From Azolla caroliniana (Eukaryota > Plantae > Polypodiophyta), in assembly GCA_043228905.1 (NCBI GenBank), contig JBHGNT010000014.1, forward strand, positions 6,076,001 through 6,140,000: a stretch of DNA of 64,000 nucleotides. Reading direction: 5' to 3'. Positions 28,625 to 44,700 of the stretch are shown here, piece by piece; positions within the stretch are counted from its first letter, which is position 1, and each line of letters opens with the position of its first letter. A model generated the notes under the pieces. That model worked only from the letters and a program-made list of their open reading frames with translations. It made no database searches and had not been told where the DNA came from. Both the position numbers and the translations under genes were made by a program.

Positions 28625-31239
28625 CCGGTTGGTGCCGTAACATGGTTGGGCTCGGAAGTCTCCGGCTCGGGCTGTGGTCCCTGTGTCATGGTGTCTACAG
28701 CCTGCGCCCCTCCCTCCTGTTGGTCAACCGTCAAATCCTCTCGTAGTGACTCCGACGTTGGTTCCACCCGTATTGCTTTGTCTGTGGTTGCGGAAGTACG
28801 GTCGGGGTCTCTTTGTAACTCTGGCGGTTGTGGTGTGAAGGTGTCCGGTCGTGGTTCCTCCCGAGGTCCTTCCGAAGTAGCTGCCGGGGTGTGAGGAATT
28901 TCGCTTGGCATGGGTGTCGTTGAGACCTCTAGAGCTTCTTCTTGTGCATGCAGACTCTTGTGTTGCTCCGTAGAGTCGTTGTCCGGAAGGATGCTAGCCT
29001 CCGCCTTCTGCGTTTCCTCCCCTCTTTGTTGTTCGTTGTTGATGTTGTGCAGCTAGTGTAATGTCTCCTCCTGGCTGTCACCGAATTCTTCAAATAGCTG
29101 CGTTATTTCTTCGGTGTGGCGGTCAGCCAAGGCTTGGTAGTCCTGCGTAAGGTCTTCTCGGACCGTAGCAATACTATCCTCGCTCAACTTGTAAAAACCT
29201 TTCATGTCCTTTCGTTGATTCTCCCAATCTGCCTTGTAAGTGTGGTGTTCTGCCGCCTATTTCGCCCATCCGGCCCAACCTCTGTCCATGGTCACTTCGA
29301 GTTCGGCCGTAAACCGGTCACATTTAGTTTGCAGGAGGGTACGGATACGTTCCATGTTAAAGTGAGTTCAGGCTTGCAAATTCTTAATAGCCTCTTCGAG
29401 ATTTTCAATTTTGCGTTTGTTGACTGCCGTTGCTTCTTCATAATGCATTTTCATTTGTGTCCATATCGGAGACTCCTTGTCATGGAGTCCCTCTAGTCGG
29501 CCCATCTCATTGTTGAGGCGTATTTCGACATCTCTGATATTTTGGCGCTCGAGCTCGAGCTGTTCATTATACCACACCCGCCTTTTCTGTGCCGCCTCTC
29601 TTAACGCCATGATGGTTCCTTCTTTCTTGGTTCCCTCCTCATTGAGTGTGTTCATCTCGCCCTTTATCCGGTCATGCGTGGCTACTTCGGCTTCGAGCAT
29701 GTCTTGAAGTGCCATGACCACCTTCCGTCCTTTCTCTCGAATGTCCATTTCTCTTTCTAAAGACTGGCGGAGTTCTCACCAAAGGCATTTGATCTCAAAT
29801 TTGGCCAGTTGAGTAGCCTGTTTTCCCTTGGCCGTTAATGCCACTTGGGCCTTTGCCTCCTCCTGTAACGCCTTTAGCTCAGTTGCCTGGGAAGCGGGGA
29901 TGGGAGTTGGTTGCAGCGTTGCCGCACTGTTTTCGAGCTCTGTAATTCACTATTGTGCCTTTTCCAATTGTTGTTGGGTTACCTTTATGGTCTTCCATAA
30001 AATTTTGTTTTTGGTAGCCATATCTTTGGCGCCAATGATAACCGTTGCCAGCTCCCTATGCACTTCCACTAAGGTCATGTTTAGCGGAGGGAGCTCTATG
30101 TCTACGCGGCGAATGCCGGCGTTTCTCTTTCTCTACACCCTCGCCAATGCGCCATCGTCTTCACTTTCCACAGTTTGGTTCAACGCCGGTTCGGGAATCA
30201 ACTCCAATGTTGAGTCGGCCTCTGTAGTGGCGGGGTTTTCCACTCGTGGGGTTGTGTCTTTAACTAGCCCTCAACCGTCTTTCCTGTCCATCCGTCTTCA
30301 TTTGGGTCTCGGGCACCCAACGTCTTTCCTATCCATCCGTCTTCATTTGGGTCTCGGGCTCCTGGGTGCCCTCTCTTACCCGACCTACGAATTTGTCGGG
30401 TGCGCTTCGACAAAGTGAACCGGGTATTGTCGGGGTGGGGGCTGAAGCTTAGAATGGCTTCACCCCCCTCCCAAAGGGGTTACGATAGTGAGAGAGATAG
30501 AGAGAAAGACAAATTGAAAATGACACAAAATGAGAGGGGAAAAATGTATATCTCATTACATACCCCATAGGGGGTTTATATAATACATCCAATGTAATGG
30601 TTACTGACCATTATAAATAAGACCATTACACATTCTTGTACACATGCACATAATTGTGCATGTGTCTATACACATACTCATCCTCACACACTCATTTACT
30701 TTACACATACACATCAACCACATCATTACATATACCCCTATGTCTCCCCGTATATTCTTACGAGTAACACATGGCACGCCTGTGGGATAGTGCATTGCAC
30801 GGTGAACCCACTCGCCATGACAACTCTTCATGACCGGAACTCCATCAGTCGTCTCAACGGTCGGAAATCCCTCGGCCGGATCACTGCTCTATGTTCGATA
30901 ACTTTGATCGGAGCTTTGCTTGACTCGAACCTTCTCGTTCGGTCAGCACAAGTCACGATTGGATCATACACCAATCGGCTAGTTCACTGTGGCATGGGTC
31001 GTGAAATCGTATTGTGCATTTGTGTATTCTTTCTTTTATCATGTGAAGTGAGTTTTATATTTTTTACCCTTTGGTCTTTAAAATTTGCCCTCATGTTTTC
31101 TTAAAATTTTGTTTTTTATGCCCTTGAGTTTTCAAAATTTTCTCTTCTACCCTTATGTTTCTGAAATTTTCTCTTCATATCCCTCTTCTCTTCCTTCGTT
31201 TCCTTCTTATGTCTTTGTCTTTTGCTTGGCTGTCTTCGC

Positions 31240-31650
31240 GGCTATCACTCGGTCGTACTCTTGGTTGCGTATCTGGGCTGCACTCTCGACTGCATGTCTT
31301 GGCCGCGTGTCTCAACCGTCTTTTCGACCACGCGTCTCGGTCATAGTCTTGACCATGCATCTCGACCGCGCTTTTCGGCCGTACTTTCGACCACGCGTCT
31401 CGGCCGTATTCTCGGCCACGCGTCTCGGTCGTGCTCTCGACCACGCATCTCGGCCATATTTTGGTCCGCATGTTTCGGCCACGCGTCTCGACCGCGCTTC
31501 GCTTCGACCGCATGTCTCAGCCGCGCACATTTTGGCCACGTGTCTTGGTCGTGATCGTGGCTATGCGTCTTCGCCATGCTCTTGGTCGCACGTCTCTAGC
31601 GGCTTTGGCCATCTCCCCGCCTTTGTGCTGGGCCGAGTCTCTTGTGTCCC
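31240..31650. repeat. Degenerate CpG-rich tandem repeat (core CGGCCACGCGTCTCGG)
   Basis: More than 10 variants of CCACGCGTCTCG spaced at roughly 25-35 bp. Confidence 0.75.
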
Positions 31651-41600: not shown

Positions 41601-41770
41601 AGATGGATCCTTGGGGACTTCGACATCGGAAAGCCCCTCAGCAGAAGGAAATAATGACATGTTTACTTGCAAGAGAGAAGAACAACAAGTGCGTGGTAGC
41701 GTGGAAGGTGTTGTTGAAGAAACAACTACAACACTCACAGGTGGAGCATCAGTTGAGAAGGGAGATAGTG
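41601..41770 (+). pseudogene. AUR: Captured Aurora kinase N-lobe fragment
   Basis: RWILGDFDIGKPLSRRK**HVY/LAREKNNKCVVAWKVLLKKQLQHSQVEHQLRREI matches Aurora DFDIGKPLGRGKFGHVYLARE..VALKVLFK.QL..SQVEHQLRRE. Confidence 0.9.
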
Positions 41771-44700
41771 GAGCATATGAGGGTGTGAGGACATCTAGAT
41801 CTTAGGAGTGATCTGTTATGAATTCCTCTTTGGTACTCCACCATGCCAAGTAGTTCTTCTGACACAACCTGACGATCCTGTGGCATGGAATAACCTTGGG
41901 GAATGCAACATTATCAACAACATCCTCAATGATTGCAACACAAGGGGAAGTGATATCCTTGCCCTCGCTACCGCCGCAATCCACTAGAAGTGAAAGGCGA
42001 GAATATGAATGGAAGCAAGAAGAGAGGGGCATTCAAAAAACATAAGGGCAGAGAAGATGAAATTTCAAAAGCTGAAGGGCATGACATGAGATTTCAAAAT
42101 TTGGAGGGCAGAATGCAGAATTTCGAAAACGCAAGGGCCAAAAATAAAATTTCAAAAAATCTAAGGGTAAAAATTTTAAAGACCAAAGGGTAAAAAATAT
42201 AAAACTCACTTCACATGATGAAAGAAAGAATACACAAATGCACAACACGATTTCACGACCCATGCCACATTGAACTAACTGATTGGTGTATGATCCAATC
42301 GCGACTTGTGCTGACCGAACGAGAAGGTTCGAGTCAAGCAAAGCTCTGATTGATTATAGAGCAGTGATCCAGTCGAGGGATTTCTGACCGTTTACACGAC
42401 TGATGGAGTTCCGGTCGAGAAGAGTTGCCATGGCGAGTGGGTTCACCATGCAATGCACTGTCAGGCGTGCCATGTGTTAGCTGTAAGAATATATGGGGAG
42501 GCATAAGGGTATGTATAATGATGTGGTTGATGTGTATGTGTAAAGTAAATGAGTATGTGTATGGACACATGCACAATTATGTGCATGTGTACAAGAATGT
42601 GTAACGGTCTTATTTATAACGGTCATGTAACCGTCACATTGGATGTATTATGTAAACCCCCTATGGGGTATGTAATGAGATATATAGTTTTTTCCCCTCT
42701 CACATTGTGTCATTTTCAATTTGTCTTTCTCTCTAGCTCTCTCACTATCGTAACCCCCTTGGGAGGGGGGTGAAGCCATTCTAGGCTTCACCCCCGACCC
42801 CAACAACATTGAACGATGTGCGATGTATTGCGAAATGTACCAATGTAGCGAAATCTGCCAGTTAACGGAGCATGCGGCTATGCCAACGAATTTGGCCTAG
42901 GACGCAGCTAAGTGCCTTTGCGTTGCCCGGAGCCGGCGCCTCCACATTGGCTTTGATTTCCCAGGATCCACCGCAATACCATCTTTGCTCATTATGTGCC
43001 CGAGAAGGGCTCCGCTAGTGACTCTGAAAGCGCACTTGGTCAGATTGAGGATGAGACGTGCGACACGACATCCTTCTAAGCATAGTCATAGATGGCGTAA
43101 ATGATCCCCCCGCATTCCATAAACTACAAAGTCATAGAGGAAAACCTACATGAACACAGGGATGAAGTCGCCAAAAATCTCGGCGATGATGTGTTGGAAT
43201 GTTTGTTGGGCGGTCTTTAGTCCGAACATCATTACTACGACCACAAACACACCCCAGTCGGTTACAAAAGTGGTTTTCTCTTGATCATCTAGGTGGATAC
43301 GTATCTAGTTGTACCCGCTAAACCCATCTAGGAAATTGTACATTTCATGGCTTGCAACGGTGTCGAGTACGCTATCCGTAAACGGCAAAGGAATGCGTCT
43401 GTGATCGTAACGGTGTTCCACTTGCGGTAGTCTACGCAAACTCGAATTTTGTCATTTTTCTTTGGTATGACTACAATGGGGCTAAGACATATTGCTTGCT
43501 TCACTGGCCGAATAAACCCAATTTTCAAAATCTTATCGATTTCCTCCTTTACGCTTGCCGCGTAATTAGGATTCATGCGATAGCATCGTTGCTGAATTGG
43601 TTTTGCATCCGTGGCTAGATTAATTTTATGTTGGTAAAATTTAGGATCTAGTCCCTTCATATCATCTTGTGACCATGCGAACACATCTTTATATTCTTGT
43701 AGTAGGGCAGTCATTGCAATTTTTTCGGTAGATGTCAGGTCCTTTGCTATTAACATCGACCGTGATGCCTCGATTGTCCCTACATTGATTTCTTCAATAG
43801 TCGACGTTGTGACTCTTCGCGAGATCTCCATTTCTCACTCAAATTCCTCTCGTGCTTTGCTCAGCTCCAATAATGATTCAGGATCCGGTCCATGTTCCTC
43901 CCCGTTTGGTATAATCGCCGCTACATACTCATTAGCGGTCTCGAAGATATCTAGATTTCGAATAGTGGTACGATCTGCGGATTATGGTCTAGATATGCTT
44001 CGAGTTATGTATCATCCGTGGATTATCGTCCAGATATGCTTCGAGTTATGTATCATTCAACCCTTCTAGCATGTTAATTTCTTCCATGTATAGTGGCGTT
44101 ATCGCTTTTGTGGGTGAGGTGGTTTCCTGCGTTGGTGCCCGGACCTTCGCTCGGCCTCGCCGAAAGCTAATGTAGTTGTACTACTAGTTCTACTTGATAT
44201 TAGTTGAGCGTAACCATGGGCATCCTAACAAGATAGGATACGCCCCTGGAGCGTCAAGAGCCAAAACAACAGCGGCAATTTCGAAGGCATGGCTACCGAT
44301 TACGATCCTTAATTCTTGGACCAACCCCAATGGTCTAATGGAACGAGTATCCTCCATTCGGAGCCAAAATGGGCAAGCTTCCCATTCCGTAATGCCGAGG
44401 TGGTTACACGTGGCCTTACTAATCATGTTCACCCTAGAGCCGTTGTCGATAATACAACCCATGATTTGCTGCCCTTGAAGCACTGCCTTGATGGTTGGAT
44501 TATGATGATCAACCACGGTTGGGCCTCTGTTAGACTCCGTAAAATTCACCAGAATTTCTACTTTGCCTGTGCCCCGTATCCGAGTTTCCACAGTCTTGCG
44601 GAACCGAGGAACTAGATTTAATAATTTGTCCATTCTTAGCGTGATCTCACAATCGGCAAGTGCTTGCAATATTGGATCCGGCGCCAATGCCATTTCTTGG

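Follow-up and report, generated by a model that had tools for sequence, protein, structure and literature searches.

Capture of several host genes by one long terminal repeat (LTR) retrotransposon is established but uncommon. The maize element Bs1 has an interior derived from three unlinked host genes, forms a single mosaic of 1-5 copies per Zea species and was re-amplified with fixed switch points (PMC13317346, PMC5131818). In LTR-mediated retrocopies of animals, the internal open reading frames (ORFs) are replaced by pieces of spliced mRNA and the products spread secondarily as non-autonomous copies; microsimilarity at the junctions, with a median of 6 bp, is reported as a signature of the process, and the multi-gene chimeras include a mouse retrocopy with four genes (PMC5131818, Tan et al. 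2016). Intact LTR elements with host fragments are also described from maize, rice and sorghum, with 425 elements and at least 189 captures in maize (PMC2774510, PMC3726574), and the maize survey reported none that combines fragments of two or more genes under its criteria (PMC2774510). Across 23 vascular plants, ~14% of the fragment-bearing transposable elements carry two or more fragments (PMC13477047). Conserved ends around variable multi-gene interiors are known from Pack-MULEs, Helitrons and GingerRoot, which are DNA elements whose cargo keeps its introns, as stated for GingerRoot (PMC6839031). Here we describe two elements, E1 and E2, from a 64-kb stretch of Azolla caroliniana DNA (GenBank assembly GCA_043228905.1, contig JBHGNT010000014.1, positions 6,076,001 to 6,140,000; hereafter the window). 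They are sister LTR elements without coding capacity, and each interior is a mosaic of host-gene pieces that was probably acquired from spliced mRNAs by template switching of a reverse transcriptase (RT) and then re-copied as a unit.

The window consists of nested LTR retrotransposons, and E1 and E2 lie about 1 kb apart, in opposite directions, within an older Ty3/gypsy element (Table 1); E2 is inserted between the RT and RNase H parts of this host and E1 just downstream of its RNase H. These two are the complete copies examined, and evidence at the family level comes from public contigs aligned to the region and from protein look-ups. That they are sisters with common LTRs of ~340 bp, as the initial annotation held, is borne out by LTRs of 345 and 334 bp with Kimura two-parameter (K2P) distances of 0.034-0.067 over all four pairings (0.048 within E1, 0.034 within E2 and 0.044-0.067 between them). 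The LTRs end in TG...CA in both, with one of the four ends reading TA, and each element is flanked by a 5-bp target site duplication (TSD) with the single mismatch previously noted (4/5 positions in both; joint chance 2.4e-4). Supporting the limits of E1, the empty site is seen in a paralogous copy of the host, on a contig of 575 nt that in all three DNA runs omits 30425-33661, which corresponds to E1 plus one TSD and two replaced letters. The shared ends comprise a leader of ~70-85 nt after the 5' LTR, as first described, and a 3' block of ~385 nt (30770-31153 against 42105-42474; 87% identity for the match including the LTR), slightly shorter than the ~400 bp first proposed, with the likeness of the 3' module fading towards 42030. 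The primer binding site (PBS), TGGCACG(CC), stands 4 nt past the 5' LTR in both and agrees with the end of iPBS primer 2237 (PMC7798630).

Two further claims, that the elements lack gag and pol of their own and that their interiors are unrelated, hold as well. Neither interior contains gag/pol or a remnant of it by Pfam or by tblastn against 13 window ORFs (mostly gag/pol) and the host frames, and the interiors of E1 (2070 nt) and E2 (804 + 987 nt) give no blastn match at E<=1 with a word size of 7. Because the ends hold only cis signals (LTR, PBS, leader and 3' module), the interior is free for replacement. Miniature terminal-repeat retrotransposons (TRIMs) measure under ~1 kb, and large retrotransposon derivatives (LARDs) are over ~4 kb with a conserved non-coding interior; E1 at 3.2 kb and E2 at 3.0 kb, with unrelated interiors, belong to neither class. 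The nested Ty1/copia element, which splits the SDI1 piece of E2, is a younger insertion and lies outside the family.

Table 1. Positions in the window of E1, E2, their parts and cargo, and the elements nested with them (TSD, target site duplication; PBS, primer binding site).
Feature	Position	Strand	Remarks
E1	30425-33654	-	3.2 kb
E1 TSD	30420..30424 (left); 33655-33659 (right)		CCCAG/CCCGG, 4/5 identical
E1 3' LTR	30425..30769	-	345 bp; terminal CA changed to TA
E1 mirror PBS	30772..30788	+	TGGCACGCC on the strand opposite to the element; 2 nt separate it from the 3' LTR
E1 3' module	30770..31160	-	conserved, non-coding; degenerate 29-bp repeats on the upstream edge
E1 tandem array	31284..31596	-	25 bp (13-bp subunit), degenerate
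E1 short charged ORF	31672..31950	-	FRIGIDA-like piece of the initial annotation; sibling copies exist
E1 KCS (3-ketoacyl-CoA synthase)	32210..32505	-	N-terminal fragment, frameshifted
E1 stretch under RNA-run contigs	32585..33084		contigs of 758, 758 and 375 nt; may be donor or sibling transcripts
E1 leader	33228..33309	-	4-nt spacer, PBS TGGCACG (degenerate past 7 nt), CT-rich leader common to both
E1 5' LTR	33310..33654	-	345 bp
E2	34727-42808	+	8-kb span; ~3.0 kb without the nested copia
E2 TSD	34722..34726 (left); 42809-42813 (right)		TAGAA/TTGAA, 4/5 identical
E2 5' LTR	34727..35060	+	334 bp; TATA-like box; strong 3'-end hairpin (z -4.8 for 35000-35110)
E2 leader	35061..35128	+	4-nt spacer, PBS TGGCACGCC at 35065, leader common to both
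E2 EF-1alpha	35265..35310	+	first 15 codons; T-rich stretch before
E2 SDI1/MS5 (POLLENLESS3-like) TPR gene, 5' part	35736..35929	+	by tblastn
Nested Ty1/copia	35930..41043	+	LTR K2P 0.012; perfect GTTTT TSD; younger insertion
E2 SDI1/MS5-like, continued	41044..41482	+	two internal deletions; continuous over 41221/41222
E2 Aurora kinase mRNA, 5' part	41497..41844	+	intron-free; internal deletion of ~360 nt; E 1e-8
E2 second TPR-type gene	41852..41900	+	~50 nt; from contig loose ends; Pfam TPR_17 E 0.015, below cut-off
E2 further donor, gene without name	41899..41963		65 nt; seen in an RNA-type run
E2 3' module	41970..42474	+	conserved; ends with the mirror PBS (42464-42472) and a 2-nt spacer
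E2 3' LTR	42475..42808	+	334 bp
Ty3/gypsy, decayed	27041..46834	-	older host of both insertions; LTR unrelated to that of the family

The cargo of E2 consists of at least five donor pieces in the order EF-1alpha, SDI1/MS5-like, Aurora kinase, a second TPR-type gene and a 65-nt donor. The SDI1/MS5 and Aurora pieces proposed at the outset were both recovered by homology (Aurora at the E-value in Table 1); the former matches fern homologs by tblastn at E 1e-17 to 1e-30, covers residues ~19-277 of a fern homolog with two internal deletions, and has its best named homologs in the ferns Pteridium and Adiantum. The EF-1alpha piece of E2 (15 amino acids, E 0.93, all four matches being EF-1alpha) and the KCS piece of E1 (E 1.5) are weak alone, and RNA-run contigs add support to these two initial assignments, with deep cover over EF-1alpha and with loose ends that, by our reading, continue in a KCS-like frame; homolog searches with the KCS frame returned no match. 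The second TPR-type and 65-nt donors, which the initial annotation did not contain, were traced from RNA-run contigs whose loose ends run into other sequence, and a homolog search with the second-TPR frame gave no match.

Directly after EF-1alpha, 35311-35346 holds a stretch of ~24 nt and then four codons fitting EF-1alpha (DSGK), which may be filler or chance. In E1, the suggestion of a FRIGIDA-like fragment at the charged ORF was not upheld: Pfam gave no match, and HMMER over 1.84 billion representatives gave three, two of them sibling copies and one a repeat artefact. A sub-threshold lead from this ORF points to the NAM-associated domain (score 0.86). A reading of 31580-31762 as LEA-like was likewise unsupported (best protein-atlas score 0.79).

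Several lines of evidence suggest that the cargo derives from spliced mRNA. All five identifiable genes lie sense to their element, as was first noted. At the joint 41652-41686 of the Aurora piece, two genomic contigs from related organisms, one of 12,713 nt from C and one of 2,631 nt from D, hold 175 letters against 33 in the cargo, a net insertion of 142 nt, while a 1,039-nt contig from an RNA-type run under the species label of the window is unbroken over 41512-41768, like the cargo. The Aurora cargo also lacks an internal part, because 375 letters of the same contig face 16 in the cargo. In the SDI1 piece, one genomic contig, 1,395 nt long and from a related organism, ends at 41221, and a second passes straight from 41221 to 41257; two RNA-run contigs (41110-41244 and 41166-41244) and the cargo are continuous over this point, where angiosperm homologs have an intron, though the contigs do not display its letters. 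The microhomology for which the initial annotation advised a search is present at both of the donor-donor junctions where the two donor flanks are visible. There TGGGAATG (8 nt) occurs in both the second TPR donor and the donor after it (as read against the loose ends, the window has one extra G), and AGCAGTT (7 nt) is common to Aurora and the TPR donor (the window copy has one base different, and three more just upstream). Thus the features of LTR-mediated retrocopies recur here in the match to spliced mRNA, the microsimilarity at switch points and the secondary retrotransposition, the last seen as siblings with the same junctions, whose insertion sites are out of view.

In the mechanism proposed, host mRNAs would be co-packaged in particles, where the RT of another gypsy-type element would switch templates at short shared sequences. 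The captures would be serial rather than simultaneous, the mosaic would then be re-copied as a unit, and mobilisation in trans may be provided by a non-chromovirus gypsy partner.

Certain observations weigh against an origin from spliced mRNA. The RNA label of run X14 is a guess. The intron-bearing Aurora contigs come from organisms C and D and not from the species of the window, and that intron is judged by a difference in length, its GT-AG ends not being displayed. The microhomology comes from two donor-donor junctions, with no element-donor junction among them. Most of the E1 interior is without gene assignment, and none of 50 cargo frames reaches a Pfam cut-off. Loss of introns is also possible after capture at the DNA level, by break repair or from pre-mRNA, if complete sense introns were spliced out of the element transcript at a later retrotransposition. 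Consistent with this alternative are the T-rich, intron-like stretches upstream of the EF-1alpha start codon and in E1 (32635, 33000-33200), one with an acceptor-like motif at ~32635 that adjoins a joint in both DNA- and RNA-type contigs; repair junctions also show microhomology. A scan for branch-point and acceptor patterns, however, gave two sense against four antisense matches and thus no sense enrichment, the identifiable genes are without exception sense, and fragments 50-65 nt long, taken from different genes, adjoin without a gap, which together leave DNA-level capture improbable. As regards transcription from the LTR, the LTR and 3' module are covered by a few contigs of low depth from a run guessed to be RNA, none of which joins LTR to cargo.

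A second alternative would place the cargo inside Pack-MULEs or Helitrons that had inserted into an ordinary non-autonomous LTR element, the outcome that the initial annotation had named as fatal to its proposal. Pack-MULEs have long terminal inverted repeats (TIRs) and TSDs of 8-11 bp around the cargo, and Helitrons have a 5' TC, a 3' hairpin with CTRR and insertion at AT. Neither interior is enclosed by a pair of TIRs, the longest inverted repeat being 20 nt at 75%, so the long TIRs of a Pack-MULE are absent around the cargo, and there is no convincing Helitron boundary, the CTRR-T motifs being scattered (4, 1 and 1) with none at a cargo end; Helitron hairpins were not scored. The direct LTRs, 5-bp TSDs, PBS and loss of the Aurora intron further set these elements apart from Pack-MULEs, Helitrons and GingerRoot. 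The NAM-associated lead from the charged ORF of E1 is a weak point on the other side, as this domain occurs in PIF/Harbinger-related proteins. Pack-MULEs and Helitrons are moreover the usual multi-gene carriers (PMC2774510). On balance such nesting has very little probability.

In their mode of working the elements described here resemble Bs1. Set beside it, they comprise at least two unrelated mosaics, one of them with at least five donors, some only 50-65 nt long; they lack a polypurine tract (PPT), and a chimeric protein is predicted at most. From the animal retrocopies they differ in their plant (fern-like) lineage, in the absence of any gag/pol remnant and in a mirrored PBS at the 3' end, and from the surveyed maize elements in the five or more donors of E2. 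Neither the term 'Pack-LTR', proposed in the initial annotation, nor this element family was found in the literature searched, outside which lie most subscription journals and figures. Because multi-gene capture by LTR elements is already described (PMC5131818), 'Pack-LTR' designates a variant rather than a new class.

At the family level, each cargo is likely a re-amplified subfamily that was copied as a unit after capture, to judge from related contigs and proteins. All five members of the P0001 protein cluster carry the SDI1 cargo of E2, four with the same deletion junction and one with only the 5' part, and the E1 ORF is present in three proteins. Contigs of organism C span the SDI1-Aurora junction of E2 and both internal deletions; the E2 mosaic probably predates the split from that organism. 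Sibling contigs also show other joints, such as an E1-type leader joined to the 35206 region of E2 and several skips in E1. The proposal of serial mRNA capture into a variable cassette gains support from the intron loss, the 7-8 nt shared at junctions and the sense orientation; that every copy differs in its cargo is not shown, because each cargo is a subfamily common to siblings, that of E2 occurring under another species label too.

It is a real though less than even possibility that, by the same mechanism, cargo-bearing copies arose only as rare offshoots, few in number, of a large family of ordinary type, with no specialised family of carriers. Such an account is compatible with capture by template switching and lowers only the family-level claim. 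It draws on the fixed, re-amplified nature of each cargo and on summed contig depth, which does not measure copy number; by depth the ends exceed either cargo by factors of tens to more than 100, in run X1 8,138 on the 3' module against 57-313 over ten bins of E1 cargo, and in run X2 2,628-7,739 on the LTR and 3' module of E2 against 106-638 on its cargo. What lies between most of these ends is out of view, and they may mostly belong to autonomous or cargo-free members. Against it stand the two window copies, which both carry multi-gene cargo of independent origin, the additional junction variants in sibling contigs, and the diverse sequence upstream of the 3' module, where loose ends before 41971-41974 are heterogeneous among contigs (agreement 0.59-0.76). 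For the main explanation it is also unfavourable that no autonomous partner was found, the LTR of the host gypsy being unrelated to that of the family, and that the single contig returned by a metagenome scan (L001:1-1203) matches part of the 3' module only, at 80% over 295 nt of its middle, with the last 120 nt and the LTR absent and other sequence following. The 3' module therefore occurs in another context too.

Three proteins (P0001, P0009 and P0010) hold an open chimeric frame of 162-164 amino acids over the SDI1 cargo, with other frames on either side, unlike the window copy, which carries stops and the copia element. This frame is a possible candidate for a new ORF of the Bs1 kind. A further sibling SDI1 protein, P0008, enters the same copia LTR at the same site but is only 57/66 identical to window 35731-35958, which points to a duplication of the whole copia-bearing element or else to a chimera in the short contig.

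The mirrored PBS is a more unusual feature than the multi-gene capture, and one that the initial annotation had not reported. No polypurine tract precedes the 3' LTR of E1 or E2, where the longest purine run is 3, compared with 9 in the copia and 6 in another gypsy of the window used as controls. Both interiors end instead in GGCGTGCCA, the reverse complement of the PBS core, followed by 2 nt and the LTR. Exact copies of the 9-mer number only three in the 64 kb, namely the E2 PBS and the two mirror sites; with one mismatch allowed there are 9 against 7.8 expected, which is chance level overall, and the three are notable because of position alone. The mirror is complementary to its own PBS over 9 nt in E2 (3/2000 shuffles) and 7 nt in E1 (59/2000), while the control copia and gypsy have no such complementarity above chance. 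In E1 the PBS is altered past 7 nt with the mirror intact at all 9, and beyond 9 nt mirror and PBS differ. Among related contigs, 19 in each of two runs have the mirror region with other LTR starts, and 18-32 match only the last 42 nt of the 3' module; a consensus of 33 loose ends before the LTR start has the motif in register in run X5 and lacks it in X2. The literature searched contained no paper found to describe a mirror PBS in the role of the PPT.

The older host gypsy has related motifs. Its PBS at ~46330-46340 resembles that of E2 (13/15, the sole other such match in the window), and the 20-mer before its 3' LTR (27041-27060) resembles the mirror of E1 at 15/20 in register, a score reached at one other place in the window on either strand. 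Host mirror and PBS are each two changes from the shared 9-mer, decayed and not complementary to each other above chance. We infer that the mirror PBS may be a lineage-level signal. An archaeal RNase H in pol marks the Tat/Ogre/Retand clade; E1 and E2 have no pol, and the host shows a classical RNase H only, with the region past it absent. A viral-contig scan with the host RT gave no confirmed relative. Among described elements, the Athila/Tat non-chromovirus gypsy share a non-Met PBS and 5-bp TSD with the family, and the Athila LTR-PBS spacer is 3-6 nt, here 4 nt; the Athila 3' junction, however, contains a PPT and was conserved in 97% of the elements of one study, and at the PPT position E1 and E2 have the mirror PBS (PMC6317226, bioRxiv 10.64898/2026.03.20.713144).

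The favoured explanation, held tentatively, well short of even probability and only slightly ahead of 5'-3' RNA pairing or a non-canonical primer, is that a second tRNA would bind the mirror site on minus-strand DNA and prime the second strand. The 3' end of a plus-strand primer has a register of 2 nt before the LTR, and the motif and PBS would correspond to tRNA-Arg; such priming agrees with a motif that ends in CCA, with its 2-nt register and with the fact that mirror and PBS do not covary. Alternatively the mirror is no tRNA site and either pairs with the PBS of its own RNA, circularising or self-priming it, or serves as a non-canonical, RNase H-resistant plus-strand primer, an account whose probability falls a little below even; cyclisation and a non-canonical primer together are about as likely as tRNA priming. 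The exact 9-nt complement in E2 counts for it, as do the 5'-3' contacts of Ty1 RNA and the state of the host motifs, each two off the shared 9-mer and without exact complement above chance. The 5'-3' RNA contacts of Ty3, with its bipartite PBS, count likewise (PMC5371799). Weighing the other way are the unequal decay of PBS and mirror in E1, the CCA placed exactly 2 nt before the LTR, and the last 9 nt of the motif, which are the end of iPBS primer 2237 (PMC7798630). A wider scheme, in which a gypsy-type fern lineage uses the mirror PBS for the PPT, has tRNAs prime both strands, and gave rise to non-coding derivatives acting as exchangeable cassettes that serially collect spliced mRNA fragments into many mosaic subfamilies, is speculative and, taken as a whole, unlikely.

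Other features of the region were also recorded. Palindromes in the family LTR lie at 35013-35052, 34814-34845 and 34909-34921; the one at the U5 end folds far above shuffles (z -4.8 and -3.4 in the tested regions), and 23-30 contigs per run match the family LTR from ~35004 onward only. RNA folding of the 3' sub-terminal part is at shuffle level (z 0.23 and -0.16). A search for tRNA genes over the window and one for Rfam families over 30400-42900 were both negative. A viral-contig scan with the LTR motif gave no match, and one with the 3' motif gave a single match, judged to be due to chance, on a contig of 131 kb that showed no similarity beyond it. The host gypsy (27041-46834) has no recognisable integrase, a ~290-bp duplication in its 3' region and a long decayed ORF of coiled-coil type at ~28700-30200 on the minus strand. 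The control gypsy, at 8562-16886 on the minus strand, has LTRs of ~1.1 kb, one with an inserted LTR-like piece; its PBS is different, and a G-rich tract precedes its 3' LTR. Nearer the window start, 1057-1587 and 3981-6323 contain a NIF phosphatase-like ORF (Pfam E 6e-8), an ORF bearing a helix-turn-helix and tandem arrays with periods of ~20-80 and 83 bp.

E1 and E2 offer an example from a plant in which template switching by LTR elements shuffles exons, the junctions can be resolved and a single element has at least five donors. The retroelements of this lineage are poorly catalogued; the word 'fern' is absent from the main text of the reference survey (PMC6317226). Through the captured pieces, the EF-1alpha, Aurora and KCS donor genes could become targets of silencing. 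Plus-strand priming by the mirror PBS, if it indeed occurs, would depart from the near-universal PPT rule, a departure that the high copy number of the family makes testable, and annotation tools that depend on the PPT could under-call such elements.

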